Assembly (NCBI GenBank): GCA_017421025.1
Contig: JAFQME010000024.1
Span: 68,134 to 132,133, forward strand
Direction: 5' to 3'
DNA: 64,000 bases
From: Oscillospiraceae bacterium
GTDB lineage: Bacteria; Bacillota; Clostridia; Oscillospirales; JAAYXM01
Shown here one piece after another: positions 3,725 to 29,027 of this stretch. A model generated the notes under the pieces. That model made no database searches and had not been told where the DNA came from. It saw nothing but the letters and a program-made list of their open reading frames with translations. The first letter of the stretch is position 1. The number at the start of each line of letters is the position of its first letter. The translations under genes were made by a program, and so were the position numbers.

Positions 3725-3736
3725 TTAATACGCATC

Positions 3737-3768
3737 GTCAGAAGGTGCTCAAAGGAGCACCTTCTGAC
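3737..3768 (+). promoter_or_regulatory. Intercistronic hairpin (perfect 14-bp stem, 4-nt loop) without U-tract
   Basis: GTCAGAAGGTGCTC-AAAG-GAGCACCTTCTGAC lies in the 69-nt gap between the first two full genes. No T-run follows. Confidence 0.55.
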
Positions 3769-3793
3769 TCACACTTTGATGGGGAGTGGCAGA

Positions 3794-5983: not shown

Positions 5984-5998
5984 AAGGAGGGAGCACAT

Positions 5999-8900: not shown

Positions 8901-11248
8901 CGTCTGAGGAGATTTTGTGCGACACCAATCTGATTTCTTCGACAGAAGGCCTGATGATGATGTCAGTCCGACTCGTTGGTAATTTTGGAGCAGGAAAAGA
9001 CAAAGCACTTCAGCTTTTGACTGTTATGCTCAATGAACTCCTGCGCTCCATGTTCCCTTCGGTAATTGACTCAATTGCTGTTTGTCCGGTTCTTAAGGAA
9101 GAATTCACCGATGAAGAGAGTGCCCAAGTGTTGGCGAAGTATCCGAAAGTAACCTTTGATGGTGTTGATGAAGCGGTCAGCAAAGATGAGTTTAATTTTA
9201 TCATTGTTGAGGACAGTGAAACGGATCTCGGTGTGGTTTCGGTTCTTTTACGAGCCGGCGATGATTTGCTGCGCACTTTGTTTGCTCCGATTAACGGTTA
9301 TTTAGAGTGGTATTTTTCCGCAGAACAAAAAAGTGAATATCTCTATTTTGGTATGGATCATGAGCCTGCATGTTTTGATTTCTCAATGTTGCGTGATGTT
9401 TCCCGTATTTTAGGCGATCGTAAACACGACATTCGTTTTGTTGAGTTATCGGAAATTGTGGAATATGAGGAATGCAGTTTCTGCGGAAAGCGGTATCGCA
9501 AGGGCGATTCAATCAATCGCCTGGGAGATGGTCGCTTGATGTGTAAAGAATGTGCTGAGCATTTGGTTGGTAACAACAAAAAGGTTCTCAAAGCACATTT
9601 GGAACGCGCAAAACTGTATTTGGAAAACACCTATGGAATTCGCTTGGATGAGGATTATGAATTCTGCTTTGAGTCCACTGTGAAACTGGCAAATACATTA
9701 AAGCAGAATCGTGAACTGCATCGTCAAGGTGCCGATGTTTCGCTGAAGAGTTACATTGACGAAAGCAAACGTGTGCATGTGGAATGTGATCTTCCGTCGG
9801 CAAATCTGTCTGAGCTTTTGGTGCGTGAACTCACTCATGTGTGGCAACTTTCGCATCTTAAGGGTGTGGAGAATCTTCTTTCGGGACACCTTGCATTGGT
9901 TGGCGTACAGTATCTGCGTTCCTTAAAAGAAAATGGACTTGCAGATTCACGTACTGCATACTTTGAAAGCACCGAAGCGGTTTCCGGTGTTGAATATCGT
10001 ACCTTGGTGCAGGAACTGCTGCTTCACCCTGAGTTTGGGAATAATCCGTTCCTCTATTTGCTGAAAACTGCCGGCATTTCGTCCGGAGACGAGGCAATGC
10101 CAATTCCACCGGAACTTGTTGAAAACGGATCTTACGGTGAACCGTATGTTCCGTCAGAGCCGGACCGTGCAACCGATGGAACCTTAAAGTATTTCTATCG
10201 AGAGCGGTTGACTGAGAGTCAGCGTGGAATGTATGATACAGTGCTTGAGGCACTTTGTAATCATGAGGAGAGTGTTGATCTCGCAGGAATCGAATTTGAG
10301 GATGCCAAAATCATCATTGAATCGATTGCGTATGACCATCCTGAGTTGTTCTGGATGAAGGAACATTATTCCTTAAGTGCAGACCGCTTGACCTTAAATT
10401 ATGGTTGCACTGCAGAAGAAGCACGTGTAATGGAAGCACGCATGGAACCTGTTATTTCCAAATTCCTCGATGGAATCACTCCTGAGATGAGTGCGTATGA
10501 TGTTGCTGTTATGCTCTATCGTCGTATCTTGAAGATGGTGGATTATGATACCATTGCGCTGAACAAAGAGCGGGAGCACGGCGGACCGGATCACAACAAG
10601 ATTGACATGCTTCGTGCAATTTGTGGTGTGTTTACCGACGGTAAGGCGGTTTGCGAGGGCTATGCACGTGCATTGCAGTATCTCCTGCAAAAGTGCGGAG
10701 TGGAATGCGCTGAGGCAGCGGGTATGGTGCATAAAGGAAACGGAGAAGAAGGCAGTCCGCATGCATGGAATATTGTCAAAATTGATGGAGATTATTATTA
10801 TCTCGATGTAACTTGGGACGATGATTCCAATACAGTTCAGTCTGTGAAGCAACCGAGAAATCAGGGGTATGCCTATTTCTGTATCACAACCGAGGAACTC
10901 AGTCGCTCTCGTGATACTTCGCTCTGTCCGGTTGCAATGCCGGTTTGTGATGCGGTTCGTGCAAACTATTTCGTTCATAACGGACTTGTGCTCGAGGCCT
11001 ATGATTTGAAAAAACTGAAAGAGATTGCAAAAGCTACTGCAGAAAGCGGCAATAACTTCATTACCTTTAAATGCACATCCAAAGCAGTTTACGATACAGC
11101 GATGGAAAATTTGTTCACCAAAGGTGATGATGTCTTTGCACTTGCAAAAGTTGCGGCAAAAGCAAACAAGAGTTTAAAGAGTGGACGTGTTTCCTATACG
11201 TGGGATGATCAAATGCTCGTTGTTTGCATCATTATGGAGATGAAGTGA
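5999..11248 (+). CDS. 1749-aa polytopic membrane protein: ~5 N-terminal TM helices + degenerate SF2-helicase/DUF1998-like body + Cys4 zinc ribbon + C-terminal transglutaminase-like cysteine-peptidase core
   Basis: AAGGAGG RBS. TM helices at nt ~6005-6688. CxxC-x19-CxxC at nt 9473-9553. RELTHVWQLSH at nt 9824-9856. Transglutaminase core CEGYARAL...HAWNIV...YYYLDVTWDD with Cys1552 (nt 10652), His1588 (10760) and Asp1603 (10805). Confidence 0.85.
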   Translation: MGLLIFILKLILVLVITALPAVPFVLEYITLKRDQEQKISFKRLRVLLYTLGYLIVATILLCFIDGLITWLRDLPVLKQVFDLLEACIEGIAKKLSLVTRYGYYTKVVGVIVLNFFIGMIYRWVSKVVRIGLKKKDLTKPKKGKHFTRIQRFERRVICFFHNETWFFVAEILKFFNLALSALYLGVFLLYQLPGVFGFNWLPFDFIYMLFESGYLFPAVTMLVLWQSYFFLEGIRRVRDECPELLEEEKEELATKEVDLAAIDEAVKKQFADYYVCDLDLSDQVAAEIFSADHHPLTQFIGQAVERDERSPHLPNDTYLTAMDGLFSSEKSALISGSFFTEFARYFLRYLSIILSRGDNVIFVCNTESQIESVYEFLNEALASITSLYCKEFSKDAVDFDDPIWRIVKVSGEHDSISEAMVDDSNVLVTSLGYLCSNRFETEHSRFVPMVDSVVFVDTLTTINCYHRQVAILNNRLKHIARENSNVVRNAENKSNFQRYLSRKIRYFCFDDSRTPGLDKVLKNMLSVNLESLDIMCYSRSTLVRCYNYEGRLDGSGRQVLPQFFHSEEEVGALINVAILCLAKGANSVNIFADGAIPFENYAETIAANRGQVLVKADGNNICINRHRYDADGYSVVIAMDSGDNLPATLRRYISMMPEKPTLVIVFSRPYLLRDFYQSNLKALWSASQLERIPVEEGTRKDLAQRILVKANAGGITTAEVMQLASNIPQLNGFVQAGDLNAILRIVLECYGVPKEERIDLFTYFEYAASHTFDANGKYVSEERIFLRRKGKLFDLINGRNMVVLSIGDQEQMLPVPKSRLTQNFIAGQNVLFDGKIYHILKVDTASGKLYGRLAVGGKNDEVYEYLQKREYHVELSHGEGETNIEKVFQTKHLVLNENEGSVGLTDAFVSVFRAPAEVLTYGYFDVDPHTMTRSFKDGRYHSICDANNDLLFKQTYRRYGTISNPKISSEEILCDTNLISSTEGLMMMSVRLVGNFGAGKDKALQLLTVMLNELLRSMFPSVIDSIAVCPVLKEEFTDEESAQVLAKYPKVTFDGVDEAVSKDEFNFIIVEDSETDLGVVSVLLRAGDDLLRTLFAPINGYLEWYFSAEQKSEYLYFGMDHEPACFDFSMLRDVSRILGDRKHDIRFVELSEIVEYEECSFCGKRYRKGDSINRLGDGRLMCKECAEHLVGNNKKVLKAHLERAKLYLENTYGIRLDEDYEFCFESTVKLANTLKQNRELHRQGADVSLKSYIDESKRVHVECDLPSANLSELLVRELTHVWQLSHLKGVENLLSGHLALVGVQYLRSLKENGLADSRTAYFESTEAVSGVEYRTLVQELLLHPEFGNNPFLYLLKTAGISSGDEAMPIPPELVENGSYGEPYVPSEPDRATDGTLKYFYRERLTESQRGMYDTVLEALCNHEESVDLAGIEFEDAKIIIESIAYDHPELFWMKEHYSLSADRLTLNYGCTAEEARVMEARMEPVISKFLDGITPEMSAYDVAVMLYRRILKMVDYDTIALNKEREHGGPDHNKIDMLRAICGVFTDGKAVCEGYARALQYLLQKCGVECAEAAGMVHKGNGEEGSPHAWNIVKIDGDYYYLDVTWDDDSNTVQSVKQPRNQGYAYFCITTEELSRSRDTSLCPVAMPVCDAVRANYFVHNGLVLEAYDLKKLKEIAKATAESGNNFITFKCTSKAVYDTAMENLFTKGDDVFALAKVAAKANKSLKSGRVSYTWDDQMLVVCIIMEMK

Positions 11249-11313
11249 TGCCGAAAACAAAACGTTCATCTTGTGAACACTACGTGAAAAAACCATAATC
11301 TGAAAAGATTCAA

Positions 11314-11364
11314 CAGTCCTCCGGCGCAGGGATCACCCCTGCATCGGGGGACTGGTTGTTTTTT
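11314..11364 (+). terminator. Rho-independent terminator closing the tubulin-like operon
   Basis: Nested GC-rich hairpin CAGTCCTCC..GCAGGG-ATCAC-CCCTGC..GGGGGACTG followed by TTGTTTTTT. Confidence 0.7.
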
Positions 11365-11489
11365 GCAAAAAGTGCTTAAAATCAACAGAATTCGACGAAT
11401 AAAGCGTTCATATTTCCTTATTCGTGCTCTCTTTTTGTCCGTTTTTTTGGACATGGGGGATGGTAGAATAGAGTTACAAAAGAGGACAC

Positions 11490-11518
11490 TTGCTGAACTA
11501 CCCTTTTTATGTTATAAT
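11490..11518 (+). promoter_or_regulatory. Sigma-70-type promoter (TTGCTG-17-TATAAT, TG-extended) upstream of the phage-like element
   Basis: TTGCTG 11490-11495, 17-nt spacer ending in TGT, TATAAT 11513-11518. It lies ~125 nt upstream of the ATG at 11643. Confidence 0.5.
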
Positions 11519-11642
11519 ACGAACATAAGTTTGATATTTATAATTTATCATAATTAAAAAATAAATACAAACAAGTTTCTGTAGAAGAAAAGAGTAGAGA
11601 AAAAGAAAAAGTAATAAAAAGAAAAAGAGAGGAGAAAAGAAG

Positions 11643-12389
11643 ATGAGTATTTGGGATGGAAGACTCAAAGATCCGAAAGATTATCTGGAGCTCAAGTGCA
11701 AGACGTATAATTCCGCACCCGGGAAGCTCACGGGATATGACTGCCCGATTTGCAAAAACCGTGGCGTGATTGCTCAGCCGGGAGAACGGGATGTGGTGTT
11801 TCGTTGGTGCAGCTGTCGGGAAAAGCGATTGATGCTGAAGAATCTTGAAAAGAGCGGAATCACACGGCTGAATACGTTTGAGGAATTTCTTTGCCCGGAG
11901 AAATGGCAATCAAAAGTCAAGGGGCGGGCAAAAGCGTTTGCCGAGCGGGATTGGGGTTGGTTTTACATGAGTGGTCAGCCCGGCTGCGGCAAGACCCTGC
12001 TTTGCACCGGGATTGTCAACCGTTTCCTGGAGCGAGGAAAGAGCGTGCGGTACTTCTTATGGCGTGAGGATGGAACACGACTCAAAGCCTTGGCGGGGGA
12101 TATCGCTTACCGTGAGGCGATTGAGCCGTATAAGACCTGCGAGGTGCTGTATATTGACGATTTGTTTAAGGGGGCGGTGACGCAGGGGGACTTAAACCTT
12201 GCCTTTGAACTCTTAAACCACCGTTACCTGGCGGGGAGTATCACCTTGATTTCAAGCGAAAAGAGTGTGTCGGAGTTGGTGGCACTCGATGAAGCGATTG
12301 GGAGTCGGGTGTATGAAAAAACACGGGAAAACCGATTCCATATCCCAAATTCAAAACACAAGAACTGGAGGTTGAACGAATGGAACTGA
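11643..12389 (+). CDS. DnaC/IstB-like AAA+ ATPase (PBSX XkdC-like replication protein)
   Basis: Walker A GQPGCGKT and Walker B VLYIDDL. N-terminal CPIC...CSC zinc motif. GAGGAG RBS. Confidence 0.75.
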   Translation: MSIWDGRLKDPKDYLELKCKTYNSAPGKLTGYDCPICKNRGVIAQPGERDVVFRWCSCREKRLMLKNLEKSGITRLNTFEEFLCPEKWQSKVKGRAKAFAERDWGWFYMSGQPGCGKTLLCTGIVNRFLERGKSVRYFLWREDGTRLKALAGDIAYREAIEPYKTCEVLYIDDLFKGAVTQGDLNLAFELLNHRYLAGSITLISSEKSVSELVALDEAIGSRVYEKTRENRFHIPNSKHKNWRLNEWN

Positions 12390-12673
12390 ACGCAAAGAAA
12401 TACGATCTCATGCGCTATCGGATGCTGAAAGCACGTGCAAGAGGTGCACTGGATGCAGGAAACACAACCCTTGCCCACGAACTCGCTTCGTGCGCCGAGG
12501 TGTTTCGCTTAGAACTCATTGACCGTATCTCCCACATCGAGGACGAGCGGGTACGCACCGTGCTCAGCCTGCGCTATTTGCATGGCTTGGACTGGGAAAC
12601 CATAGCCGAACAAATGTTCTTTAGTGTGCGTTGGGTGATGAAGCTCCACAGAAAGGGGATCGAGGTGCTATGA
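12380..12673 (+). CDS. Sigma-70 region-4-type HTH protein (Xpf/DUF1492-like late-gene regulator)
   Basis: 97 aa. C-terminal LSLRYLHGLDWETIAEQMFFSVRWVMKLHRKGIEVL resembles a sigma region 4 HTH. Its position between the XkdC-like gene and terS matches xpf in PBSX. Confidence 0.5.
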   Translation: MELNAKKYDLMRYRMLKARARGALDAGNTTLAHELASCAEVFRLELIDRISHIEDERVRTVLSLRYLHGLDWETIAEQMFFSVRWVMKLHRKGIEVL

Positions 12674-12981
12674 CCCCAAGGCAAAAGAAATTCTGTCATG
12701 AGTATCTGCTGTGTGAGGATGCGAGCGAGGCGGCGCACCGTGCCGGCTATCAGAATCCCGAACAGGCGGGAGAACGGTTGATGGGTGAGCGTGAGGTGCA
12801 GGAGTATCTGGAGGAGATTGCGGTGGCAGATCTCTTTGAGGTGCGTGCATTTCTCACACGGGCACTCCGAGGCGGCGGCAGCATGGCGGAGCGCATCAAG
12901 GCGGCGGATATGCTCTTAAAATGCGGCATTTCCCAAAAGACCGAGCCCGTGGTGATTTTCGGGGAGGGGGATTTGCAGTAG
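12670..12981 (+). CDS. terS: Terminase small subunit
   Basis: MTPRQKKFCHEYLLCEDASEAAHRAGYQNPEQAG is typical of a Terminase_2 N-terminus. ATGA start/stop overlap with the upstream gene (start 12670 preferred over 12631). Confidence 0.8.
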   Translation: MTPRQKKFCHEYLLCEDASEAAHRAGYQNPEQAGERLMGEREVQEYLEEIAVADLFEVRAFLTRALRGGGSMAERIKAADMLLKCGISQKTEPVVIFGEGDLQ

Positions 12982-13041
12982 CAAACCGGAGTATGATGCA
13001 ATCCGGTGGGAAACGCTCGATGCACAAAGGAGGAAAAACCC

Positions 13042-13382
13042 ATGAACGAGAAACAATACACGAAATACACGGTGGATTTTCGGAATGTCAAGCACTTTTT
13101 GGAGGTGCATTTCGTGATTCGGGAGGGGCTGGATTTTCCCGATTATTACGGATGGAACCGGGATGCGTTTTGGGACTGCATCACCGAGCCGTTTGGGGAG
13201 TCGGTCCTTTGGGGATTGAAGTGCTGGAACAATTCGATGATGATGCGTATATGCTGTTATCAACTCTCAAAGAATGGAAAAAATATGAGTTGCAATTGGG
13301 AAGAGAAAACCGAATCGAGGTCGTCCGAGGAGATCGGTGCATTGAAATCGATGATTATCCGATCGAGACGTTATGTCCGTAG
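13042..13382 (+). pseudogene. Barstar-family (barnase inhibitor) gene disrupted by a frameshift
   Basis: The N-terminal half (MNEKQYTKYTVDFRNVKHFLEVHFVIREGLDFPDYYGWNRDAFWDCITEPFGES) is in the frame of ORF 13006. The C-terminal half (PLGIEVLEQFDDDAYMLLSTLKEWKKY...IEIDDYPIE) is in the frame of ORF 12921. The switch is near 13195-13215. Both halves align to the intact copies at 35884 and 36501. Confidence 0.7.
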
Positions 13383-13455
13383 GATGAACGAACTGGAGAA
13401 TTCATAAGCGAACAAACGTTTTTCGAGGGCGGATCATGAGGCGTGCGTCAAGGGG

Positions 13456-14529
13456 ATGTTTGAGAAGATTGCAAAGACCATCCGTGAGGATCTCAAAAAC
13501 GGGGAATGGCACAACGATTTCCTCAAAGATGCCGAGGCAGATCGCTTGCGTGAAGCGGTGCAGCACCTTGAAAAATGCGGGGTTTCGTGCTATGATTTAA
13601 GAGATCTGATCGGAAAACTTGATTGGTATATCGATGCGAATGAAAACCGTGTTCGTAAGCTGCAGAAATCGCTCAATGCATTGCGGATTTCCCCATCGCT
13701 TTTGGAAGATGGAATTTTGGGTGCAAAAACCATTTCGGCGTGGGGGGATTTTTACAAAGAATTCCAAAATGCAAACTGCCCGAAACTACAGTGGAAAACG
13801 GCTCCGTTGCGTGCGGGAACCACTGATGTTTCGGAGCTTGAGAAACTCAGTCAATCAATGTCCGGGTATGGGGTGTTGGAGAAAGGGCTAAAGAATATGG
13901 AGTCTGTAGCGACAAAAATAAAAGCTGGAGAATGGCAAAAGAATTTTCGAGAATTGCACGAATTGTTTCCGAGTCTTCGCTCTGCGAGTTACCTGTCAGA
14001 TAATTTTTTTATTTCTCAAAGAGCAAAGCGCTTTTTAGATGATATGGGATCTTCTGTTCGTGTCGTTGAAAAAGCAGGGAACGTGTTTGCCGTTGCAGGA
14101 GTTGTGGCAGATGCGCTGATTGCAGGGGCTGAAGTTTATGATGATGTAAAATATGATGGAAAACTAGGACGAAAAGGATATGGTGCAGTTTTAGGAACGG
14201 CGACAAGTTATGCAATCGGATCGATGATTAGCAATTGGGGTGGTGGTCTGACGATCGGTGCAAAGTTAGGCGCAGTTTTTGGACCGGCGACAAGTTATGC
14301 AATCGGATCGATGATTAGCAATTGGGGTGGTGGTCTGACGATCGGTGCAAAGTTAGGCGCAGTTTTTGGACCGACAGGTGCTGTGATCGGTGCGGTTGTT
14401 GTTCCAATCATATTGACAATTGTTGGGGAAGAAACGGCCGGATCACTTGTGCGATGGGTTGTGGAGGTTACCGATCTCAAAAAGGAACTGTACGGACCTA
14501 CTATGGCAAAACATTTTAGTTTGGAGTGA
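13456..14529 (+). CDS. 357-aa protein with PG_binding_1-like motif and C-terminal glycine-zipper membrane region (candidate membrane-active toxin/lysis factor)
   Basis: RVRKLQKSLNALRISPSLLEDGILGAKTISAW (nt ~13648-13755) fits the peptidoglycan-binding-domain pattern. The C-terminus has a GxxxG/A-rich hydrophobic region with a duplicated 29-aa unit. There is no signal peptide. Confidence 0.6.
   Translation: MFEKIAKTIREDLKNGEWHNDFLKDAEADRLREAVQHLEKCGVSCYDLRDLIGKLDWYIDANENRVRKLQKSLNALRISPSLLEDGILGAKTISAWGDFYKEFQNANCPKLQWKTAPLRAGTTDVSELEKLSQSMSGYGVLEKGLKNMESVATKIKAGEWQKNFRELHELFPSLRSASYLSDNFFISQRAKRFLDDMGSSVRVVEKAGNVFAVAGVVADALIAGAEVYDDVKYDGKLGRKGYGAVLGTATSYAIGSMISNWGGGLTIGAKLGAVFGPATSYAIGSMISNWGGGLTIGAKLGAVFGPTGAVIGAVVVPIILTIVGEETAGSLVRWVVEVTDLKKELYGPTMAKHFSLE
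14200..14373 (+). repeat. Perfect 87-bp tandem duplication (2 copies) inside the glycine-zipper region
   Basis: 14200-14286 equals 14287-14373 by eye. Each copy encodes ATSYAIGSMISNWGGGLTIGAKLGAVFGP. Confidence 0.85.
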
Positions 14530-14535
14530 GGAATT

Positions 14536-15261
14536 GTGTATCCGAAGTGGCTTGCGAAGTTGATCGTTGCGACAAATGGGTTTGCCGAAGCGACCGGAAT
14601 GAAACACGCATATGTGGTGCGTGAGAAGAATGTATACCGTGTGTTCGGGATTGCGGACCTACACCGGGAGAAATTACTCTCGCTTGCGATGCGGATGCTT
14701 TGCGAGTTTTCTGCGCCGTTTGGTGTCATTACCTCGTTTTCGCGTGACCCTGAGCCGGTGTTGACCCCGGAAGAAAAACTGCGTTTCCGCCTTGAGCGGG
14801 AAGGTGCGGTTTTGGTGGAAGAAGATCGTTTTTCCGTGGCGAGTTTTGGGGCTCGCCGTGACATTTTAGAGGAAATAGGACACGATGTAACAGCATGGGG
14901 CAAGAACCGTCGGATTTGGGACGGGATGTACATGGAACTCTTCCCTCGGGAATGTTTCCCGAACGATCCGCTTTCCCGGTGGAAAGCAGGCAATTGGGAG
15001 CCGGAACTGACGCTTGCAACCGAGTTGTATCATATGCCGCCCGGGCTCCCCGGACAAAGCCGCAGAGAGCCGTTGTTTTGTGCGTTGTCGGTTTTTTGTG
15101 TGTCTGTCAAATTGCCGCACGGAAGCTCACCGCGCGTGGCACAAGGCTTAGAACACTGGCTTGCGACCGCACTTTCGGAATTGGATTTTTCTGCGGAGTG
15201 GTATGTGACCGGGAAATTGCCCGACTGCGAAGAGCGGATGTTTCAGCGGGAATTTCTGTAA
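14536..15261 (+). CDS. Paralog 1 of a three-member hypothetical family (candidate immunity-like protein)
   Basis: GTG start inside the conserved junction AGTTTGGAGTGAGGAATTGTGTAT (14518-14541). Shares the FGIADLH, WDGMYMELF and AEWYVTG blocks with the 15975 and 16753 genes. Confidence 0.7.
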   Translation: MYPKWLAKLIVATNGFAEATGMKHAYVVREKNVYRVFGIADLHREKLLSLAMRMLCEFSAPFGVITSFSRDPEPVLTPEEKLRFRLEREGAVLVEEDRFSVASFGARRDILEEIGHDVTAWGKNRRIWDGMYMELFPRECFPNDPLSRWKAGNWEPELTLATELYHMPPGLPGQSRREPLFCALSVFCVSVKLPHGSSPRVAQGLEHWLATALSELDFSAEWYVTGKLPDCEERMFQREFL

Positions 15262-15303
15262 CCGAACGGCGGAATGGGTTTTTGACAGTGAGGAGGAAAC
15301 AGG

Positions 15304-15957
15304 ATGAAAATCAAAGAGTTTTTTGAAAATTTGCTCATAAAATTTTTTGATCGGGTGTTTGATTGCCTTGGCATTCATGGGTGTGAGGAGTGGGAGGATA
15401 CCTACTTGATGAATGAGTGCATACGATATCCCTATTATGTGGATGGGGTTCCGCCCGAATATGCTCTGCTTACCTGTTATCCCGATCCGGTTTGGGGCGG
15501 CGATTGGGACTTCCCTTTGGTCGTGTGGGAGGTGCTGGAAACCCTCCTTGCAGGAAAGTGCGCGGTTGTGCGGCTTTCTTCCTGGGCGCCCAAGGGAGTA
15601 GAGTTTGTGAAAGACGAGCTTTCTCACATAGAATCCGTGTATCTCACAGGTGAGGAAATCTATGTGGTGTCAAACGGGATGAATCCTGCACTTGGGGACG
15701 TGATTGCTGCCAGAGCAGGTGAATTTGACCTGATTTGGGAAGTGTTTGGGGGATGCAGTTTCGTTGGAGGAAATTTTGAGGATGCGGAAGAGGCATATAC
15801 GATCGGTGCGAAAGTCTTTTTGGACTTGAGTTTTGGAGAGCATTGTGGTGCACAGTTTGTGTTTTCTGATCCTGCGGATCGGGAAACGGCAAGGAGCGTG
15901 TTGGCTGAAGTATGCCGCAAATACGGAAAGAAGCTGATCGAATCGAATGAGAGATGA
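15304..15957 (+). CDS. Hypothetical protein (217 aa), intercalated in the paralog array
   Basis: GAGGAGGA RBS. No motif recognised. Its stop abuts the second conserved junction. Confidence 0.65.
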   Translation: MKIKEFFENLLIKFFDRVFDCLGIHGCEEWEDTYLMNECIRYPYYVDGVPPEYALLTCYPDPVWGGDWDFPLVVWEVLETLLAGKCAVVRLSSWAPKGVEFVKDELSHIESVYLTGEEIYVVSNGMNPALGDVIAARAGEFDLIWEVFGGCSFVGGNFEDAEEAYTIGAKVFLDLSFGEHCGAQFVFSDPADRETARSVLAEVCRKYGKKLIESNER

Positions 15958-15974
15958 GTTTGGAGTGAGGAATT

Positions 15975-16727
15975 GTGTATACAGAGAGGGATGCAAAAAT
16001 TTCCCTTGCGCTTTGTATGAAGAGAAAAATGTTACGTCGGATTTATGTTTGGAGGACGGAACGGAAACTCTCAGAGCATACACGGGTGACCTATCAGATT
16101 TATGGTGTGGCAGAACTTCATGCCGAGAAACTCCACGCACTTGCCATGAAGTTTTTGCGGGAGTTTGCGGCACCGTTTGATACGGTGATGACCGTCCTGA
16201 AACAAACACGATTTGATTCAATGCCGAATGAGCAACTGCAGGCACGATTGAAACTTGAGAGCGCTGTCTTTGCGGAGAAAAATAAGTTTTCTGTTTTTTC
16301 CCACGGCGTGCGCAATGACATTCTTGATACCATCGGTCGCAATGTGAAAACATGGGGCGACTACGAACCTGTTTGGGACGGGATGCACTTGGAATTGTTT
16401 TCAAACGAGGTTCTGCCGGGCGATCCGACCGAGGCATTGGAGCGTTGGAACAAGAATCGTCCCAAACCTGTGTTTGAAATCATGACTGAGTTTCGCAGGT
16501 TTCCGAGAGACGGTTATCCTTATCAGTATTACACATCAAGCATTACAAAGTTTTGCATCAATGCGGGGTTCTGCGAGGGAAGTACGGATGCGGATGAGCA
16601 GGCATTTGAGAAGTGGCTTGCGAGTGTGTTTACCGAACTGGACATCAATGCGGAATGGTATGTGACCGGGAGCAAACCCGAAAGTGCCAGTGCGTTCTTC
16701 CCTTGGGATGATGCCGAAGCGTGGTGA
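15975..16727 (+). CDS. Paralog 2 of the three-member hypothetical family
   Basis: GTG start in junction 15957-15980. Has the conserved blocks YGVAELHAEKLHALAMKFLREFAAPFD, VWDGMHLELF and AEWYVTG. Confidence 0.7.
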   Translation: MYTERDAKISLALCMKRKMLRRIYVWRTERKLSEHTRVTYQIYGVAELHAEKLHALAMKFLREFAAPFDTVMTVLKQTRFDSMPNEQLQARLKLESAVFAEKNKFSVFSHGVRNDILDTIGRNVKTWGDYEPVWDGMHLELFSNEVLPGDPTEALERWNKNRPKPVFEIMTEFRRFPRDGYPYQYYTSSITKFCINAGFCEGSTDADEQAFEKWLASVFTELDINAEWYVTGSKPESASAFFPWDDAEAW

Positions 16728-16752
16728 AAGATGGAGTTTGGAGTGAGGAATT

Positions 16753-17490
16753 GTGTATCCGAAGTGGCTTACGAAGTTGGATCTTTTGTGGTATGGGCAG
16801 AACTATTTGATGCAACCGATTTTTGTTTGGAGAAGTAAAAAACGGCTTTCGCCGCATACAAAGGCGACTTATCGGGTTTTCGGAGTGGCAGAACTTCATG
16901 TGGAGGAGTTTCATGCGCTTTCCATGAAGTTTTTGCGGGAGTTTGCGACATCGTTTGATGTGGTGATGACAGTTCGTCACAAGTCGCTTCTTGATACTGT
17001 AAAGATGAATCCGTTTTTGAAACGACCGAAACCCGAATGTGCCATGATCGTGGATGAAAAAAACATTGCGGTATTGACTCGTTCTGCGCACCAAGAGGTT
17101 TTGAATCGGCTTGGACGAGATGTAAAAGCATGGAAGAAGAATCAATGGGTGTGGGACGGAATGAAGGTGGAATTTTTTTCGCCTGGAGACTTGCCGGATG
17201 ACCCGAATGAGGCGCTTGCATGGTGGAATGAGCATCGACCGCAACCTGCATTTGAACTGAAAATCGAGTTTCGGGAGTTTTCGTCGCATGGCAAACACTA
17301 TATCCGAAATGCTACCACTTTTTGTATCTCTGCCGCACTTCCGCAAGGAAGTACGGATGCGGATGAGCAGGCATTTGAGAAGTGGCTTGCGAGTGTGTTT
17401 GCCGAACTGGACTTGGATGCGGAATGGTATGTGACCGGAACAGAGCCTGATTGTACGGAGCTGTTCTTTGGTTGGGGGAAAATTGGCTGA
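16753..17490 (+). CDS. Paralog 3 of the three-member hypothetical family
   Basis: GTG start in junction 16735-16758. A 54-nt block (17347-17400) is identical to 16578-16631 of paralog 2. Confidence 0.7.
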   Translation: MYPKWLTKLDLLWYGQNYLMQPIFVWRSKKRLSPHTKATYRVFGVAELHVEEFHALSMKFLREFATSFDVVMTVRHKSLLDTVKMNPFLKRPKPECAMIVDEKNIAVLTRSAHQEVLNRLGRDVKAWKKNQWVWDGMKVEFFSPGDLPDDPNEALAWWNEHRPQPAFELKIEFREFSSHGKHYIRNATTFCISAALPQGSTDADEQAFEKWLASVFAELDLDAEWYVTGTEPDCTELFFGWGKIG

Positions 17491-17528
17491 TTGAGATGAG
17501 GTTGGAGTGAGGGAAGTGTGCAAGTGCG

Positions 17529-17557
17529 TTGACTTTTTTCGGCATTTTTGGTATACT
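17529..17557 (+). promoter_or_regulatory. Sigma-70-type promoter (TTGACT-17-TATACT) for the lipoprotein/YitT cassette
   Basis: TTGACT 17529-17534, 17-nt spacer, TATACT 17552-17557. Confidence 0.55.
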
Positions 17558-17592
17558 GGATGACGCAAAAAAAGAGAAGGAAGTGCTTTGGA

Positions 17593-17898
17593 ATGAAACG
17601 GTTACTGGCTTGTGTGTTGCTCCTGGTGTTTCTTGTTTCCGGCTGTGCTTCGGTGGAGTCGAAGCTGGTTGGAAAATGGGAGCGTGAGGGAGACAAGTTG
17701 ATTTTAAATGAGGACTATACCGGAGATCTTTCCGGGACTTCGATTACTTGGATGTACACCAACGAGGAATTGCAGATGATTTACGACGACGGCATGAACG
17801 TTGCGTTTGATGTGGAATTTGAGGGTCGGGATCGGCTGATTCTCACATCGGCGGGAGAGTATGGCATGACAGCGGAATTTTCCCGTGTGGAGGACTAA
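17593..17898 (+). CDS. Small lipoprotein (lipocalin-like/DUF-type)
   Basis: MKRLLACVLLLVFLVSGC is a lipobox signal. Start 17593 is preferred over 17548. Confidence 0.7.
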   Translation: MKRLLACVLLLVFLVSGCASVESKLVGKWEREGDKLILNEDYTGDLSGTSITWMYTNEELQMIYDDGMNVAFDVEFEGRDRLILTSAGEYGMTAEFSRVED

Positions 17899-18735
17899 AT
17901 GAAACAGACGAAAACCATTTTGATGACCTTGTTTGGCACCATGATGACAGGGTTTGCCATCGGTGCGTTTCTCACTCCGAATAAAGTGGTTGGTGGCGGT
18001 GCTTCCGGTATTTCCACCATTTTGTTCCACACCTTTGGCATTTCTCCGGGTATCAGTTTCTTTGTGATCAACCTGGTCTTTTTGCTTTTGGGGCTGCGTG
18101 TTTTGGGCAAGGAATTCATTGTCAAAACCCTGATCGGAATCACGCTGCTGTCGGCCTTTACCGAGGTGTTCAACTTAATCCCGATCTACACCGAGAATTT
18201 ATTTCTTGCGGTGATTTTCGGGGGCGGGCTTTACGGGCTTGGCATCGGCATGAGTTTTGCAGCCGGCGCATCCACCGGCGGCACCGACATCATTGGCCGC
18301 ATCATTCAGACCAAGTTCTCGCATGTCCCGATCGGGAAGATGCTGCTGTTTGTGGATGGGGTGATTATTTTGGTGTCCCTCATCGTGTTCCGTAATCTGG
18401 AACTCACGTTGTATGGCATCATCACTCTGCTGATCTCGAGCTTCTCGATTGATTTCATCATCGGGAAATTCAACGTGTCCCGCCTGGTGTTTGTCATCAC
18501 CGATTACGGGACCGAGATTGCGCATCGTTTGGTGTCCACCTCGCCTCGTGGGGTCACGTTGATTCCGGTTCACGGGGTGTATTCGGACAGCGAAAAACAG
18601 ATGCTGTTTTGTGCACTCAAGGAGAGTGAAGTTGCCGCATTCCAAAAGAAGATTTTGGAGCTGGACCCGGGCGCATTCATCGTGTTTGCCGAAAGCCAGC
18701 GCATCAAAGGCAACGGGTTTTATCTGTATCAATAG
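17899..18735 (+). CDS. YitT-family membrane protein (DUF161 + DUF2179)
   Basis: N-terminus FGTMMTGFAIGAFLTPNKVVGGGASGISTIL and multi-TM topology are typical of the YitT family. The C-terminal soluble domain ends ...RIKGNGFY. Confidence 0.8.
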   Translation: MKQTKTILMTLFGTMMTGFAIGAFLTPNKVVGGGASGISTILFHTFGISPGISFFVINLVFLLLGLRVLGKEFIVKTLIGITLLSAFTEVFNLIPIYTENLFLAVIFGGGLYGLGIGMSFAAGASTGGTDIIGRIIQTKFSHVPIGKMLLFVDGVIILVSLIVFRNLELTLYGIITLLISSFSIDFIIGKFNVSRLVFVITDYGTEIAHRLVSTSPRGVTLIPVHGVYSDSEKQMLFCALKESEVAAFQKKILELDPGAFIVFAESQRIKGNGFYLYQ

Positions 18736-18736
18736 C

Positions 18737-18761
18737 AAACCGCCCGTACAGGGCGGTTTTT
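18737..18761 (+). terminator. Rho-independent terminator after the yitT-like gene
   Basis: AAACCGCCC-GTACA-GGGCGGTTT followed by a T-run. Confidence 0.75.
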
Positions 18762-18802
18762 CCAAAACAGACATACGAACAAATGTTTTAAGGAGAGAGG
18801 AA

Positions 18803-19999
18803 ATGAAGTGTTATTTACCGGACATTGTCGGTGGCGGGTACCGTGAGTTTTGGAATTTTCGTGGGAGGTATCGGGTGGTCAAAGGGAGCCGTGCGTCCAA
18901 AAAATCCAAGACCGCTGCGTTGTGGTATATCGTACATCTGATGAAATACAGCGATGCGAATCTGCTTGTGGTACGAAAGACCGAACGAAGTCTTCGGGAT
19001 TCTTGTTTTGCGGATTTGATCTGGGCGATGGAGCGACTCGGGGTACGGGATCAATTCCATTGCACCACCGCACCGCTTTCCATTGTCTACAAGCCAACCG
19101 GGCAGCAGGTGCTGTTTCGTGGGGTGATGGAGAGTCTCAGACTCACCTCGATTGCGGTGAGTCGGGGGAGTTTGTGTTGGCTGTGGGTAGAGGAGGCATA
19201 TGAAATCGGAGACGAAGCCGAGTTTCAGACGCTGGATGAGTCTATCCGTGGCGATGGCGTGTTCAAACAAATCACGCTGACCTTCAACCCATGGAGCGAG
19301 ACCCATTGGCTGAAATCCCGCTTTTTCGATACATCGGACCCCGAAGTGCTTGCCATGACCGTGAATTACACCCAAAACGAGTGGCTGGATGAGAGTGACC
19401 GTGCCATGTTCGAACGGATGCGGGAACGGGATCCTCGCCGTTACCGTGTGGCGGGGCTTGGTGAGTGGGGGATTTGCGACGGGCTGGTGTATACCGATTG
19501 GGAGGAGTGCGACTTTGACGTGGATGCACTTCGCAGCAGCACCCGTGCGATTTTTGGGCTGGATTTTGGATACACCACCGACCCTGCCGCTTTGGTTTGT
19601 GCCCTGGCTGATGAGGGAGCTCGCACACTGTATATTTTCGATGAGCTTTATGCCAAGGGGCTGACCAACCGTGTGTTGGCGGAGCGAATCACATCACTTG
19701 GCTATGCAAAGGAACGTATCGTTGCGGATTCCGCTGAGCCGAAAAGCATTGCAGAGTTGAGAGAGTGGGGGATTACTCGGGTCACCCCGGCACGCAAAGG
19801 TGCGGATTCGGTGCGGAATGGGGTGCGTTATCTGCAGGATTGGCACATCTGCATCCACCCCCGTTGTACCGCATTTTTGGGCGAGATCTCACGCTTTGCA
19901 GAGACCCCGGACGGGACAAGCGGCGACGATCATCTCATGGACGCCCTGCGATATGCGGCAGAGGATCTCCGCCGAGGGGAGCTGTTTAGTTTTGAATGA
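18803..19999 (+). CDS. terL: Terminase large subunit (PBSX XtmB-like)
   Basis: AAGGAGAGAGG RBS before ATG 18803. Has the ATPase-like WVEEAYE (Walker B) and the C-terminal nuclease region GLDFGY...DHLMDALRY. The 18611 extension overlaps yitT and the terminator, so it is rejected. Confidence 0.85.
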   Translation: MKCYLPDIVGGGYREFWNFRGRYRVVKGSRASKKSKTAALWYIVHLMKYSDANLLVVRKTERSLRDSCFADLIWAMERLGVRDQFHCTTAPLSIVYKPTGQQVLFRGVMESLRLTSIAVSRGSLCWLWVEEAYEIGDEAEFQTLDESIRGDGVFKQITLTFNPWSETHWLKSRFFDTSDPEVLAMTVNYTQNEWLDESDRAMFERMRERDPRRYRVAGLGEWGICDGLVYTDWEECDFDVDALRSSTRAIFGLDFGYTTDPAALVCALADEGARTLYIFDELYAKGLTNRVLAERITSLGYAKERIVADSAEPKSIAELREWGITRVTPARKGADSVRNGVRYLQDWHICIHPRCTAFLGEISRFAETPDGTSGDDHLMDALRYAAEDLRRGELFSFE

Positions 20000-20010
20000 G
20001 GGCGAAATTC

Positions 20011-20039
20011 TTGACATTTGTCGAGGTTTGTAGTAAAAT
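20011..20039 (+). promoter_or_regulatory. Sigma-70-type promoter (TTGACA-17-TAAAAT) of a moron cassette
   Basis: TTGACA 20011-20016, 17-nt spacer, TAAAAT 20034-20039. It lies directly after the terL stop. Confidence 0.6.
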
Positions 20040-20079
20040 GTAGCAGATACATACACAAAAGATGGAAAGGGGAATTCTT

Positions 20080-20370
20080 ATGAAAAAAATCATCTTGATT
20101 GCTGTTGCAGCAGTGTTGTTAATTGCATTGCTGGTACCGTATGTGCCGTACTATTTCCATGGTTGCGACAGCTGCGACAAGTTCTTTGTCGGACCGGGCT
20201 ATGAAGCAAATGTGGTTGTAGACTTGTTCTCTAAGGGCGAACAGTTGGTTTGTCGTGAGTGTGCAGAGTCGCAGCATGTGGTTGGGACTACTTTCGGCAA
20301 GGATATTGCTGAATACCGCCGTTCCGCAATCGTTGATCCGATCACCGCATATGGTTTGCTCTTCAAGTAA
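20080..20370 (+). CDS. Small membrane-anchored zinc-ribbon protein (hypothetical)
   Basis: N-terminal TM MKKIILIAVAAVLLIALLV, then CDSC...CREC. Start 20080 is preferred over 20062. Confidence 0.6.
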   Translation: MKKIILIAVAAVLLIALLVPYVPYYFHGCDSCDKFFVGPGYEANVVVDLFSKGEQLVCRECAESQHVVGTTFGKDIAEYRRSAIVDPITAYGLLFK

Positions 20371-20390
20371 GTTTTTAGGAGGGTTTTAAA

Positions 20391-20840
20391 ATGAAAAGAA
20401 CAGTTGCATTTCTTTGCGCAGTTGTAATGCTGGTGACGATGTTTGCCGGCTGCACCACAAAAAAAGGTGAGATTGAAACGTTGTTTACAAACTATCAGGC
20501 AGCGTGCAATGCATTGGATTTGAATGCTATGATGGCTTGTGTTACCCCGACTGTCACCAATCCGCTCAAGACAGCGGCAGGTATTGTCGGTAAGTTGACT
20601 GCCAATGATACAGATGCAATGTTTGACAAAATTGGCGCTTTGATTATGAACGAAACAAAAGTCAGCCGCAAAGAATATTTCCAAACCCTTAGTTTCAAGG
20701 TTGGAACAATTACCATCGAAGAGGATGTAGCTACCGTTGAGGTGATTCGTACTTACACCGGAAATGGCGCAGAGTATACCGAGGAAGATACTTACGAATG
20801 CGTGTTTTATGCAGATCAATGGTATTTGAAACACTTTTAA
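20391..20840 (+). CDS. Lipoprotein (149 aa), function unknown
   Basis: Lipobox signal MKRTVAFLCAVVMLVTMFAGC. AGGAGGG RBS. Confidence 0.7.
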   Translation: MKRTVAFLCAVVMLVTMFAGCTTKKGEIETLFTNYQAACNALDLNAMMACVTPTVTNPLKTAAGIVGKLTANDTDAMFDKIGALIMNETKVSRKEYFQTLSFKVGTITIEEDVATVEVIRTYTGNGAEYTEEDTYECVFYADQWYLKHF

Positions 20841-20853
20841 ACACAAAGCAAAA

Positions 20854-20887
20854 CACCGGAATCCATCAGAGATTCCGGTGTTTTTTT
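20854..20887. terminator. Bidirectional terminator between convergent cargo genes
   Basis: CACCGGAATC-7 nt-GATTCCGGTG, flanked by an A-rich stretch and T7. Confidence 0.75.
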
Positions 20888-22736
20888 AGTATGTAATCAG
20901 GATTAGTTCATCTTTGGGATGGAGAGTCACAGGTGCTGCAGTGTCCGTTTCAGAAGATAAGAAAGAAATCTCTTGACAGTCTGAGCCTTCCGGCTTAATG
21001 CCAACACACATTTTTTTCTTTCCGGAAGCCAGAAAGAAAGATTGGATCAATTCGGACTTAGAAGAGAATGTCATTTCTTGAGCATTGAATTCCAACAAAT
21101 CTTCGGCACGGATAATATCAAAATCGATACTACCGGCATCACCTATTCCGTTTGTGAGTATGATATCACGGTAGAAACGGCGGGAACCCGGGTGGGTGAG
21201 CAGTTGCGCCATAAAGAGAGAGATGATTTTACTTGACACAATAACCGAGGCAACCCCTAGGTTTTGCATGGAAATTAAGTTTTTCGGGTTTACAATTTCA
21301 GCATAGATTGGAATGTGTGGATCCAGTTTTCCGCTGATTTTCAATGAGATCAGTGCAATGAAAACATCAGCGTCCTGGTCTGCTTGGTTTCCTCTCTCCG
21401 ATGACAGAAGCAGAATCTTTTTATTACCGGGAATCGCACGGATATGCTCTGCGAAAATGTCGATATTTTCAGAGTAGGAATGTACTTCAACCGTGATGCT
21501 TTTACCGAATAAACGGTTATAGGCATCGAGCTCCTCGGAAACAAAGCGGACTCGGTCGGAGTCAGAAAGAATGATGAGTGTGAAATTTTCTCGGATGATC
21601 CTTTCTCTATAGGGAATGGGTTTTGCAAATGAATGGGGTGTTTTTCGCTCTTCAATGGATTCGAAATCGTCTGCAAGGAAATACAGTTGATCTGCTGCGG
21701 TTTCGCCGTTTTCGTCGATTTCGCAGTCGTCATCATAATTGATAATCGGAATACAGTTATGGTAACGATAGAGCGCTTGCTCCAAATCCATGGTGGGAAG
21801 GCTATAGAATTCGCATCCTTTATAGGAAAGGATATGGTGGAACAATTGGGAATAAAGAGGGTTGATGACTGCTCTGCCAAGAATATGACCGATGACTGAG
21901 TTGTGCGCAAAGACCGAAACACGATTTAACAAGGACGGATCTGTTTTGTGGAGAAAATGTTCGATTCGTTTTTCTGTGCTTTCATTTTCTACTTCAACTG
22001 CAATATTAGCACGGGATCCCATATTGCGAATTGCCATCAATACCTTAAAAGAGGATAAATCGGCATCTGAGATGAGAATTCCGTCATCTTCTGTGACGCT
22101 CTCATCGGAAAGAAGAACACCGATATACTTTGCATTATCGATGGAAACATCTTTCAAATGTTTGGATGAATTTGGAGTGCCATATTTGATAAACAATTCC
22201 ATATTCCGGATACTACGTTGGTTCTCGGTGAAGATGTTTTCAATGGAAGTCATAACTTCGTGGCGGTTCTTCTCGCAGAGAATGACAATTGTCTTTTTCT
22301 CCTCCTGAAATGACAGGTCATAAATAATGTTTGGACCAATGGCAGACCAGTTTAAAAAAACATAATGATCTCGTAATTTCAGTTTTCCAACATTTTCAAC
22401 ACGTTTGTTGATCGTAGATTGCAGAATGTCTGTGGTGAAACCGATGAGCGCACCCGAGAAGATTACCATTTGCACCACAGTGAGCACAATTTTGATGACA
22501 AAACAGGTGACATCTTCTTGTTGATTCACAAAGTCATAGATGCCGTCTGAACACATGGTATAGGTGAATAGATAGGAAAGCTCCTCGAAAAACGGATTTT
22601 TAGAGATGATTGAGAGTAATGCAGTGAAAAACAGGATGACAACGAGATTGATTGCAACCAATAGAAGGGCGATTGCTGCACGAGGATGGGTATACCAAAA
22701 TAGATAAAGCCCACCTGATTTTCTTTCTTTTTTCAT
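20886..22736 (-). CDS. Membrane protein with 2-TM pore-like N-terminus and tandem RCK/TrkA-like domains (CASTOR/POLLUX-type putative ion channel)
   Basis: 616 aa. TM segments AAIALLLVAINLVVILFFTALL and CFVIKIVLTVVQMVIFSGALIGF flank LFTYTMCSDGIYDF. RCK-like starts at HYVFLNWSAIGPNIIYDL and FTLIILSDSDRV. It lies antisense to the phage late genes. Confidence 0.6.
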   Translation of the reverse strand: MKKERKSGGLYLFWYTHPRAAIALLLVAINLVVILFFTALLSIISKNPFFEELSYLFTYTMCSDGIYDFVNQQEDVTCFVIKIVLTVVQMVIFSGALIGFTTDILQSTINKRVENVGKLKLRDHYVFLNWSAIGPNIIYDLSFQEEKKTIVILCEKNRHEVMTSIENIFTENQRSIRNMELFIKYGTPNSSKHLKDVSIDNAKYIGVLLSDESVTEDDGILISDADLSSFKVLMAIRNMGSRANIAVEVENESTEKRIEHFLHKTDPSLLNRVSVFAHNSVIGHILGRAVINPLYSQLFHHILSYKGCEFYSLPTMDLEQALYRYHNCIPIINYDDDCEIDENGETAADQLYFLADDFESIEERKTPHSFAKPIPYRERIIRENFTLIILSDSDRVRFVSEELDAYNRLFGKSITVEVHSYSENIDIFAEHIRAIPGNKKILLLSSERGNQADQDADVFIALISLKISGKLDPHIPIYAEIVNPKNLISMQNLGVASVIVSSKIISLFMAQLLTHPGSRRFYRDIILTNGIGDAGSIDFDIIRAEDLLEFNAQEMTFSSKSELIQSFFLASGKKKMCVGIKPEGSDCQEISFLSSETDTAAPVTLHPKDELILITY

Positions 22737-22857
22737 TATATTCTCCCCAAAACATAAAGATATATAAAGTATATCATAAATCCGACAAGTTTAGCAAGGA
22801 AAAGAATTTTGGCGAAATTTGTTTTGAGAGAACGGGATGTGAACACGTTCAAACAGA

Positions 22858-22894
22858 GAAACCCTTTGATTTACAAGGGGTTTCTTGTTTTTTT
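22858..22894 (+). terminator. Plus-strand intrinsic terminator-like hairpin just upstream of the portal gene
   Basis: GAAACCCTTTG-ATTTA-CAAGGGGTTTC (one G-U pair) followed by TTGTTTTTTT. Confidence 0.45.
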
Positions 22895-23052
22895 GTTTGA
22901 GGGAAGAGGACATTTACTGTCCTCTATGGGGTGTGGTATCATGGATATGCAAACGAAAGTTCGGGATATGGAGAAAGAGAAGCTGTGGGGATCCACGCAG
23001 TTTTTTTTACTTTGGTATTCGAACGGATGTTTGCGAGAAAGGAGGTGAAAGC

Positions 23053-28887: not shown

Positions 28888-29027
28888 TCCGCGGCGGCGG
28901 CAGTGACGCACGGCTTGCATGTGACTGTCTCATGCGCTTTGGCTGGCCGCCGTCGCAAACCATGCGTCTGAGTGCGAGAGAGCGGGCATTTGTCTGCGCC
29001 GCACTGGAGGAAGGAGGAACATTATGA
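28878..29027 (+). other. Putative -1 programmed frameshift site (A AAA AAA) and 47-codon extension of the tail chaperone
   Basis: A7 run at 28878-28884. The -1 frame reads MIRGGGSDARLACDCLMRFGWPPSQTMRLSARERAFVCAALEEGGTL* and stops at 29025-29027, overlapping ATG 29024 of the next gene. Confidence 0.55.

Follow-up and report, generated by a model that had tools for sequence, protein, structure and literature searches.

Accessory genes and LexA-type boxes between the terminase genes of a PBSX-like prophage of Oscillospiraceae

We analysed a stretch of 64,000 nucleotides (nt) of contig JAFQME010000024.1 from an Oscillospiraceae bacterium, hereafter the window, which carries a PBSX-like prophage whose small and large terminase subunit genes, terS and terL, lie far apart. 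A first-pass annotation had put this separation at about 5.8 kb, and it is borne out: both terminase genes are intact, and the 5,821 bp between them hold seven intact genes and one pseudogene (Table 1). Within a lineage of PBSX-like prophages of Oscillospiraceae and Eubacteriales metagenome-assembled genomes (MAGs), we lean towards reading the terS/terL junction as an old, stably inherited accessory slot, occupied by three independent blocks and placed under a proposed regulation by LexA. The conserved layout and the sites of the SOS-repressor type point to a stable, probably regulated cargo slot and not to damage. The terminase pair is usually treated as inviolable and serves as a marker for prophage finders, and pipelines based on adjacency would split or miss such elements; the present case suggests that cargo can persist at this junction for a long time in PBSX-like prophages of Gram-positive bacteria.

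Synteny and age of the terminase junction

We fetched 106 loci encoding relatives of TerL, 35 from genomes and 71 from viral contigs, and a terS homolog was detectable in 48 of them. In 47 of these 48 loci the N-terminal terS hit ends 5–502 bp before terL, so that the genes abut, in agreement with the earlier statement that the pair is normally adjacent. Where they are detectable, sig homologs (encoding a small sigma-like protein) immediately precede terS, and 64–131 bp separate the end of terL from the portal gene, which gives sig–terS–terL–portal as the synteny of the family. The sole exception is L010, a Eubacteriales MAG locus with an 88% identical TerL, where 5.9 kb separate terS from terL and the gene order is that of the window: sig, terS, a PGzip homolog, two arr genes, the lipoprotein gene, yitT and terL. 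The left half of the insert was also found in two metagenome contigs reached via PGzip homologs, L109 and L107; the latter, with about 68% DNA identity, continues from terS into PGzip and arr genes until the contig ends. The comparison with homologous elements lacking the insert, which the first-pass annotation had proposed, thus shows that the inserted genes are missing from 47 relatives and are accessory.

Public data assign one protein of the insert to an Oscillospiraceae MAG. An assembly chimera, which comes to mind since the source is a MAG, has a practically negligible probability and is excluded by the agreement of independent assemblies. Indeed, L109, from another sample, is 100% identical over positions 3456–14286 of the window and 99.9% identical over 14269–16834, and L010, which belongs to a different species-level lineage, spans terS to terL in the same order.

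Synonymous sites have reached saturation between the window and L010 (synonymous divergence, dS, 1.0–1.7), and purifying selection acts on terS (71% identical to its L010 ortholog), on terL and on the cargo, as judged by the ratio of nonsynonymous to synonymous divergence (dN/dS, Table 1). The purifying selection on these genes indicates that the arrangement works, and together with the saturated dS it indicates that the arrangement has long persisted with every gene functional, which argues against a recently wedged insert and against a broken operon. The description of the insert as foreign cargo wedged between the two genes therefore stands in one part only. The genes are accessory, absent from the 47 relatives, and the G+C content at third codon positions (GC3) is low in PGzip (0.40) and arr2–4 (0.49–0.53) against 0.59–0.67 in the core genes; but the wedge is not recent, since L010 shares it at saturated dS.

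It is accordingly improbable that the prophage is decaying and that the insert broke the late operon, leaving terL unexpressed or unneeded. The frameshifted barstar gene of the slot would suit such decay, as would the absence of any close relative among the viral contigs and an open reading frame (ORF) of just 236 amino acids (aa) at the position of the tape-measure gene. However, terL, terS and yitT remain under strong purifying selection across saturating divergence with the insert in place, and the set of head, tail and lysis genes is complete. Downstream of terL lies a complete PBSX-like contractile-tail module, with an SPP1-type portal, major head protein, adaptor, sheath, tube, XkdN-type chaperone, baseplate genes and an amidase endolysin. 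The tape-measure-position ORF (29024–29734) sits between the XkdN-type chaperone gene and an XkdP-like gene, and no Pfam or PHROG family matched it.

Even less probable is that terS is a separate remnant, functionally unlinked to terL, an outcome that the first-pass annotation had named as fatal to its own proposal. The distance of 5.8 kb and a Terminase_2 match that covers the first 52 of 141 profile positions might suggest it, but in 47 loci terS homologs abut terL homologs between sig and the portal gene, and no second terS adjoins terL. The Terminase_2 match is well above threshold (43.8 bits, cutoff 26.1) and covers the N-terminal helix-turn-helix. Furthermore, terS aligns end to end with its relatives, including a conserved C-terminal PV(V/I)I.G..L tail, and its dN/dS is 0.18. 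The end-to-end alignment and the abutting homologs in relatives thus contradict the case for a remnant. The same alignment rules out a truncation of terS by the insertion, and short variants of the protein exist, as seen in relatives with a 119–120-aa TerS without the same internal segment.

Gene blocks of the slot

A moron, in the concept of Hendrix and Juhala, is a gene with its own promoter and terminator that is inserted between the genes of a late operon. The lipoprotein–YitT cassette at the right end of the slot is a classical moron by its predicted signals: it lies between two late genes, has a patchy presence (only L010 among the 48 loci), and carries a predicted promoter and a predicted factor-independent terminator of its own. 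It had been described as autonomous, and both signals are indeed conserved in L010, where the −35 and extended −10 elements are kept between diverged flanks and the stem of the hairpin is kept with a different loop. The hairpin has a 9-bp GC-rich stem (dG −16.4 kcal/mol, z −5.4) followed by five U; a pattern scanner missed it, the probable reason being a stem that reaches into the T run. The first-pass annotation had placed this terminator about 40 nt before the ribosome-binding site (RBS) of terL; the hairpin is real and conserved, but the distance from its end is about 27 nt to the RBS and 40 nt to the ATG.

The lipoprotein gene most likely starts at ATG 17593, and the moron is probably expressed in the lysogen. 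As with known morons, part of the neighbouring cargo differs in composition, but the cassette itself does not (GC3 0.59 for the lipoprotein gene and 0.68 for yitT); in addition, a pseudogene and an orphan module without a promoter occupy the same slot, and a LexA-type box follows its terminator, which lies outside the classical description of a moron. A 74%-identical YitT homolog was found on the metagenome contig L112 between esterase, TRIC-channel and AraC genes, and this chromosomal-looking context suggests a bacterial source of yitT.

The middle of the slot is taken up by PGzip and arr1–4. The PGzip protein is about 60–82% identical to its L010 and L107 homologs over residues 1–100 and about 2–55% identical beyond, with a dN/dS (window versus L010) of 0.135 for the N-terminal 110 codons and 0.49 for the remainder. 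An earlier label as a peptidoglycan-binding protein could not be kept, as the match to the PG_binding_3 profile (PF09374) stays below the cutoff of 24.6 bits both in the window (18.3) and in L010 (23.2) and covers only about 30 of the 76 profile positions. PGzip has no Pfam match over cutoff, none in NCBIfam or PADLOC, and weak tail-protein matches alone in PHROGs (tape-measure and tail-lysin families, E about 1e-3); its N-terminus gave no tblastn match in 50,697 phage records. The protein has no signal peptide, and its AlphaFold2 model is unusable for a fold search (predicted local distance difference test, pLDDT, 34). A tandem duplication of 87 bp (14185–14373; 2.2 copies, 98% matches), which adds 29 aa to the glycine-rich region, is missing from the otherwise 100% identical L109 and may be real variation or an assembly artefact. 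The PGzip homolog of L010 has a 200-aa N-terminal extension without a family match.

The genes after PGzip had been taken as a four-gene array; they are instead three paralogs (arr1, arr3 and arr4) and one different gene, arr2. The paralogs encode proteins of about 240 aa that start with MYPKWL, end with EWYVTG and lack hydrophobic segments, and among 1.84 billion representative proteins a profile search recovered only seven members of the family. The copy number of arr varies among the lineages, and the same 24–45-nt junction precedes each arr gene (the repeat was checked before arr1, arr3 and arr4), so that the module appears, from these comparisons, to be one that evolves fast, and by gene gain and loss. 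None of arr1–4 matched anything in PADLOC, NCBIfam, PHROGs or Pfam. For arr4 a moderately confident model was obtained (pLDDT 75, predicted template-modelling score 0.78), and Foldseek searches with it against PDB and BFVD returned noise alone (TM-score about 0.2); no PDB sequence matched arr or PGzip below E 0.3 in profile searches. Since no convincing promoter or terminator was found between terS and arr4, PGzip and arr1–4 are most likely co-transcribed with terS. Side observations in the L010 slot (4970–6030) include an orphan fragment of the PGzip N-terminus (18 aa, 83% identical) and a gene for a membrane protein with a zinc ribbon and DUF805, which is missing from the window.

Polymorphic toxin loci can pair a toxin with an array of immunity paralogs, an example being the glycine-zipper toxin TspA and the TsaI paralogs of Staphylococcus aureus. 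PGzip resembles such toxins in that a conserved N-terminus is joined to a fast-diverging, glycine-rich and hydrophobic C-terminus; a variable paralog array follows it, a barstar-type immunity relic adjoins it, and an orphan fragment of its N-terminus persists in L010. On the other hand, neither PGzip nor arr has a recognisable toxin or immunity domain or a trafficking domain such as LXG or WXG, as judged by Pfam, NCBIfam, PHROGs, PADLOC, PDB sequences and the arr fold search. In addition, PGzip lacks a signal peptide, the arr proteins are soluble and not membrane proteins, and no secretion system is in view. From the architecture we infer an envelope-directed conflict function, toxin/immunity-like or exclusion-like, which would make the arr family and its membrane partner PGzip candidates for a new conflict system in gut Clostridia.

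A less likely explanation is that PGzip and arr are lineage-specific late phage functions, such as anti-defence, exclusion, or helpers of assembly or lysis, expressed together with the terminase. They stand in the same order after terS in the window and L109, in L107 and in L010, on the same strand and under purifying selection; the lack of a convincing promoter or terminator from terS to arr4 and the weak matches of PGzip to tape-measure and tail-lysin families would fit as well. Against it, PGzip and arr are missing from the 47 relatives with abutting terminase genes; the arr family is almost unique to this lineage, GC3 is low in PGzip and arr2–4, and the variable copy number with repeated junctions is that of arrays that gain and lose genes.

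The pseudogene next to terS had been recognised as a frameshifted barstar gene, and its conceptual repair supports this. The Barstar match stops at position 44 of the 96-position profile, with the remainder in another frame, and the repaired product aligns end to end with two intact paralogs at 58–65% identity; by these alignments it is a dead barstar-type immunity gene. The two intact barstar-family genes (35884–36219 and 36501–36833) lie just past the endolysin gene, at the prophage's right end, and no toxin of the barnase type was seen in the window.

Table 1. Features of the terminase junction and its surroundings (window coordinates), with dN/dS between the window and L010
Feature	Position	Strand	Description and basis	dN/dS
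Predicted sigma-A-type promoter of the dnaC-like/sig/terS operon	11490–11519	+	TTGCTG, 17-nt spacer, TGtTATAAT; near-consensus; read from sequence	
LexA-type (Cheo) box	11520–11532	+	CGAACATAAGTTT; one base past the −10 of the operon promoter	
dnaC/IstB-like ATPase gene	11643–12389	+		
sig	12380–12673	+	small sigma-70 region-4-like protein, 97 aa; Sigma70_r4 E 3e-5, just under cutoff; PHROG 36	
LexA-type box	12607		inside the sig gene	
terS	12670–12981	+	intact small terminase subunit, 103 aa; Pfam Terminase_2 (PF03592), PHROG 51	0.18
Barstar-like pseudogene	13042–13382	+	frameshift near 13195–13205; Pfam Barstar (PF01337), N-terminal half only	
LexA-type box	13409–13421	+	CGAACAAACGTTT; 34 nt ahead of the PGzip ATG; not at this place in L010 or L107	
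PGzip	13456–14529	+	orphan protein, 357 aa; N-terminal ~100 aa conserved; C-terminus divergent, glycine/alanine-rich, hydrophobic	
arr1	14536–15261	+	member of the orphan MYPKWL...EWYVTG family; alignment of paralogs	
arr2	15304–15957	+	unrelated orphan gene; L107 protein P0009 joins it to an arr domain	
arr3	15975–16727	+	paralog of arr1 and arr4; alignment	
arr4	16753–17490	+	paralog; 56% identical to L010 gene	0.32
arr-type junction remnant	17502–17520	+	RBS and GTG, no arr gene after; marks the next-module boundary; read from sequence	
Predicted sigma-A promoter of the lipoprotein–YitT moron	17529–17557	+	TTGACT-17-TGgTATACT, 10/12 matches	
Lipoprotein gene	17593–17898	+	101 aa, lipobox LVSGC; 68% identical in L010	0.14
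yitT	17899–18735	+	YitT-family membrane protein with DUF2179; PF02588 E 7.6e-57, PF10035 E 3.2e-14, both full length; 87% identical in L010	0.055
Intrinsic-terminator-like hairpin	18737–18763	+	AAACCGCCC-gtaca-GGGCGGTTT, then T-rich; folding, L010 comparison	
LexA-type box	18776–18788	+	CGAACAAATGTTT; between the yitT hairpin and the terL RBS	
terL	18803–19999	+	large terminase subunit; Terminase_3 and Terminase_3C (E 9e-50), PBSX-family TIGR01547; RBS AAGGAG at 18790–18795	0.06
Second cargo slot, between terL and portal	20011–22942	.	relatives have 64–131 bp here; contents: promoter 20011–20039, p102, p149 lipoprotein, bidirectional terminator 20850–20884, p616 (minus strand), hairpin 22856–22886, promoter-like site 22913–22942	
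Control region ahead of portal	22951–23032	+	box 22951–22963 (minus strand), hairpin and T8 22975–23008, box 23020–23032	

LexA-type boxes and proposed control of the operon

The LexA operator, or Cheo box, is GAAC-N4-GTTC in Bacillus subtilis and GAACnnnnGTTT in Clostridia, where it occurs at lexA, recA and ruvC of Clostridioides difficile (PMC4234289). We searched the window for the pattern CGAAC-N4-GTTY and found six sites, all within 11520–23032, against 1.33 expected in 64 kb; at least six were reached in one of 100 shuffles. The motif of these boxes equals the clostridial operator GAACnnnnGTTT, a consensus taken from PMC4234289. The SOS genes of the host lie outside the window. The first of them adjoins the promoter of the operon that contains terS, and this promoter–box unit (11490–11532) is also present in L010 and L107, that is, in three lineages, with diverged flanks. 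In insert-free relatives, a perfect CGAACAAACGTTC likewise follows a sigma-A promoter about 870 bp upstream of terL, ahead of the terS operon, so that direct LexA control looks like a family trait from the placement of these sites. One to three perfect CGAACAAACGTTC boxes were noted in L008 (9062–9258), L028 (9119), L016, L021, L023–L025, L027 and L029, the three of L008 being spaced by about 90 bp.

The box between the hairpin and terL is identical to its L010 counterpart at 13 of 13 positions despite the saturated synonymous sites, and the RBS of terL is kept there as well, while the bases between the hairpin stem and the box have diverged. A second cargo slot separates terL from portal, and past it the same order of hairpin, box and RBS recurs ahead of the portal gene: the box at 23020–23032 is followed by an RBS and the portal ATG at 23053, and the box at 22951 lies just past a promoter-like site (22913–22942). 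A box directly follows a promoter at 11520 and probably at 22951, but not at 18776, 13409 or 23020. The conserved box before terL and the repeated hairpin–box–RBS units are absent from the first-pass annotation. Compared with the Cheo-box control known from Firmicutes, the motif is the same and lies just past the −10 in the window, L010, L107 and insert-free relatives; the difference is that the terL and portal boxes of the window follow hairpins, without a recognisable promoter. The box inside sig (12607) was dropped as a conserved site, as it is kept in neither L010 nor L107. The idea that the 13-mer is a −35 element of the extracytoplasmic-function sigma type or a start-associated translation signal was also dropped, because it matches the clostridial LexA operator and follows the −10 of the main promoter in three lineages.

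We propose the following mechanism. The operon starting at 11490 would be held off by host LexA via the box abutting the −10, so that transcription in the lysogen would be limited to the morons. The hairpin past yitT, together with LexA at the box 12 nt further on, would keep moron transcription out of terL and the structural genes. Upon DNA damage LexA would be cleaved, the operon promoter would fire and the cargo would be transcribed, terL being reached by read-through of the hairpin with its short tract of five U. The hairpin–box–RBS unit after the second cargo slot would likewise guard the portal gene. The gene layout, synteny, conservation and selection described above are shown, whereas the binding of LexA, the roadblock it would form, read-through of the hairpin and the role of the cargo are deduced from sequence. 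No antiterminator was found, which the first-pass annotation had considered as a way to couple terS and terL across the terminator. A terminator combined with a host-repressor box would be a testable design for genes expressed by a lysogen from inside a silent operon; it occurs twice in one element and is conserved in a diverged relative.

A competing and less probable view gives terL its own promoter near the hairpin and RBS, served by the sigma-region-4-like protein of the element or another factor than sigma-A, with the 13-mer as part of this promoter or its operator. The conservation of the 13-mer and the terL RBS in L010, the sigma-like gene just upstream of terS, and the promoter-like site and box of the portal gene are consistent with it. 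However, no sigma-A −35/−10 pair fits between 18737 and 18790, and a terL promoter of the sigma-A type in the hairpin–RBS interval was thus discarded; the terL box ends 14 nt ahead of the ATG, too close for a −10, a start site and an RBS to fit downstream of it; and at the main promoter the 13-mer occupies the operator position past the −10 in three lineages.

Several points weigh against the reading of the junction as a LexA-regulated cargo slot that we favour. The boxes at 12607 and 13409 lack comparative support, that of the terL box comes from two lineages only, and the portal boxes are known from the window alone; a box without a promoter could also be a relic of a promoter–operator–leader unit and not a working roadblock. 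In addition, every known member of the lineage, of which there are three or four, has PGzip and arr, which could therefore be lineage-specific phage functions and not cargo, and no function can be assigned to them from Pfam, NCBIfam, PADLOC, PDB, PHROGs or the arr fold search. Furthermore, the GC3 of the yitT cassette (0.59–0.68) equals that of the core genes, so that composition is no mark of foreignness there.

A bolder proposal, which we regard as tentative, is that the pairs of terminator and LexA box are dedicated insulators for morons in the late operon and that PGzip–arr is an undescribed conflict system. If true, such insulators would let a PBSX-like prophage under direct LexA control carry constitutive morons without leaking terminase and structural genes in the lysogen, and PGzip–arr would be a new toxin/immunity or anti-phage system, drawn from a family seen only seven times in the representative proteins searched.

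Known systems and neighbouring features

PBSX-like defective prophages of Firmicutes are SOS-inducible and have a late operon of contiguous genes, xpf–xtmA–xtmB–portal. The element in the window shares with them the order of a sigma-like gene, terS, terL (TIGR01547, PBSX family) and portal, with sig at the position of the PBSX late activator, and a tail module with XkdN-type and PHROG-identified tail sheath, tube and baseplate genes. It differs in carrying cargo in two slots, terS/terL and terL/portal, and in that its sigma-like protein has just 97 aa, control being seemingly exerted by LexA boxes at the operon promoter. The PHROG 36 match of sig is annotated as a transcriptional regulator.

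A precedent for cargo at the same junction is the Tab/anti-Tab moron pair at the terS–terL junction of Pseudomonas phage JBD26, in which the gene that immediately follows terS is transcribed as part of the late operon and the other has its own promoter, active in the lysogen (PMC10884400). The location between terS and terL and the combination of a late-operon gene with an own-promoter gene are common to both cases. Tab and anti-Tab, however, are two small proteins of a Mu-like phage of a Gram-negative host, whereas the window has about 5.8 kb with seven intact genes in a PBSX-like element of Clostridia. What is new here is how large and how old the slot of this Gram-positive element is, together with its orphan families and the pairs of terminator and box.

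All genes from 11.6 to 20 kb of the window lie on the + strand, and an Rfam search of 11–24 kb found no RNA family. Immediately upstream of the operon promoter, 203–11248 holds three very large genes. One encodes a Tubulin_2-like protein of 1173 aa, another a protein of 735 aa with two hydrophobic segments, and the third a protein of 1749 aa that has membrane segments at its N-terminus and a transglutaminase-like core at its C-terminus. Their GC3 is low (0.43–0.48), they accompany the element in L107, L109 and L110, and PADLOC gave no hits for them.

In the second cargo slot, p616 encodes a 616-aa RCK-like membrane protein. The corresponding slot of L010 (8503–12796) contains a gene for a 1104-aa protein with TIR and beta-propeller domains (PADLOC PDC-S66, Aga_TIR), and in L013, 4.4 kb separate terL from portal. 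The p98/p102 cassette has the promoter TTGACA-17-TAAAAT; in L010 (8590–8640) the sequence GAACTACCGTTT lies directly past its −10, and no such sequence is present there in the window (20011–20045), so that SOS control of this cassette may differ between the two lineages.

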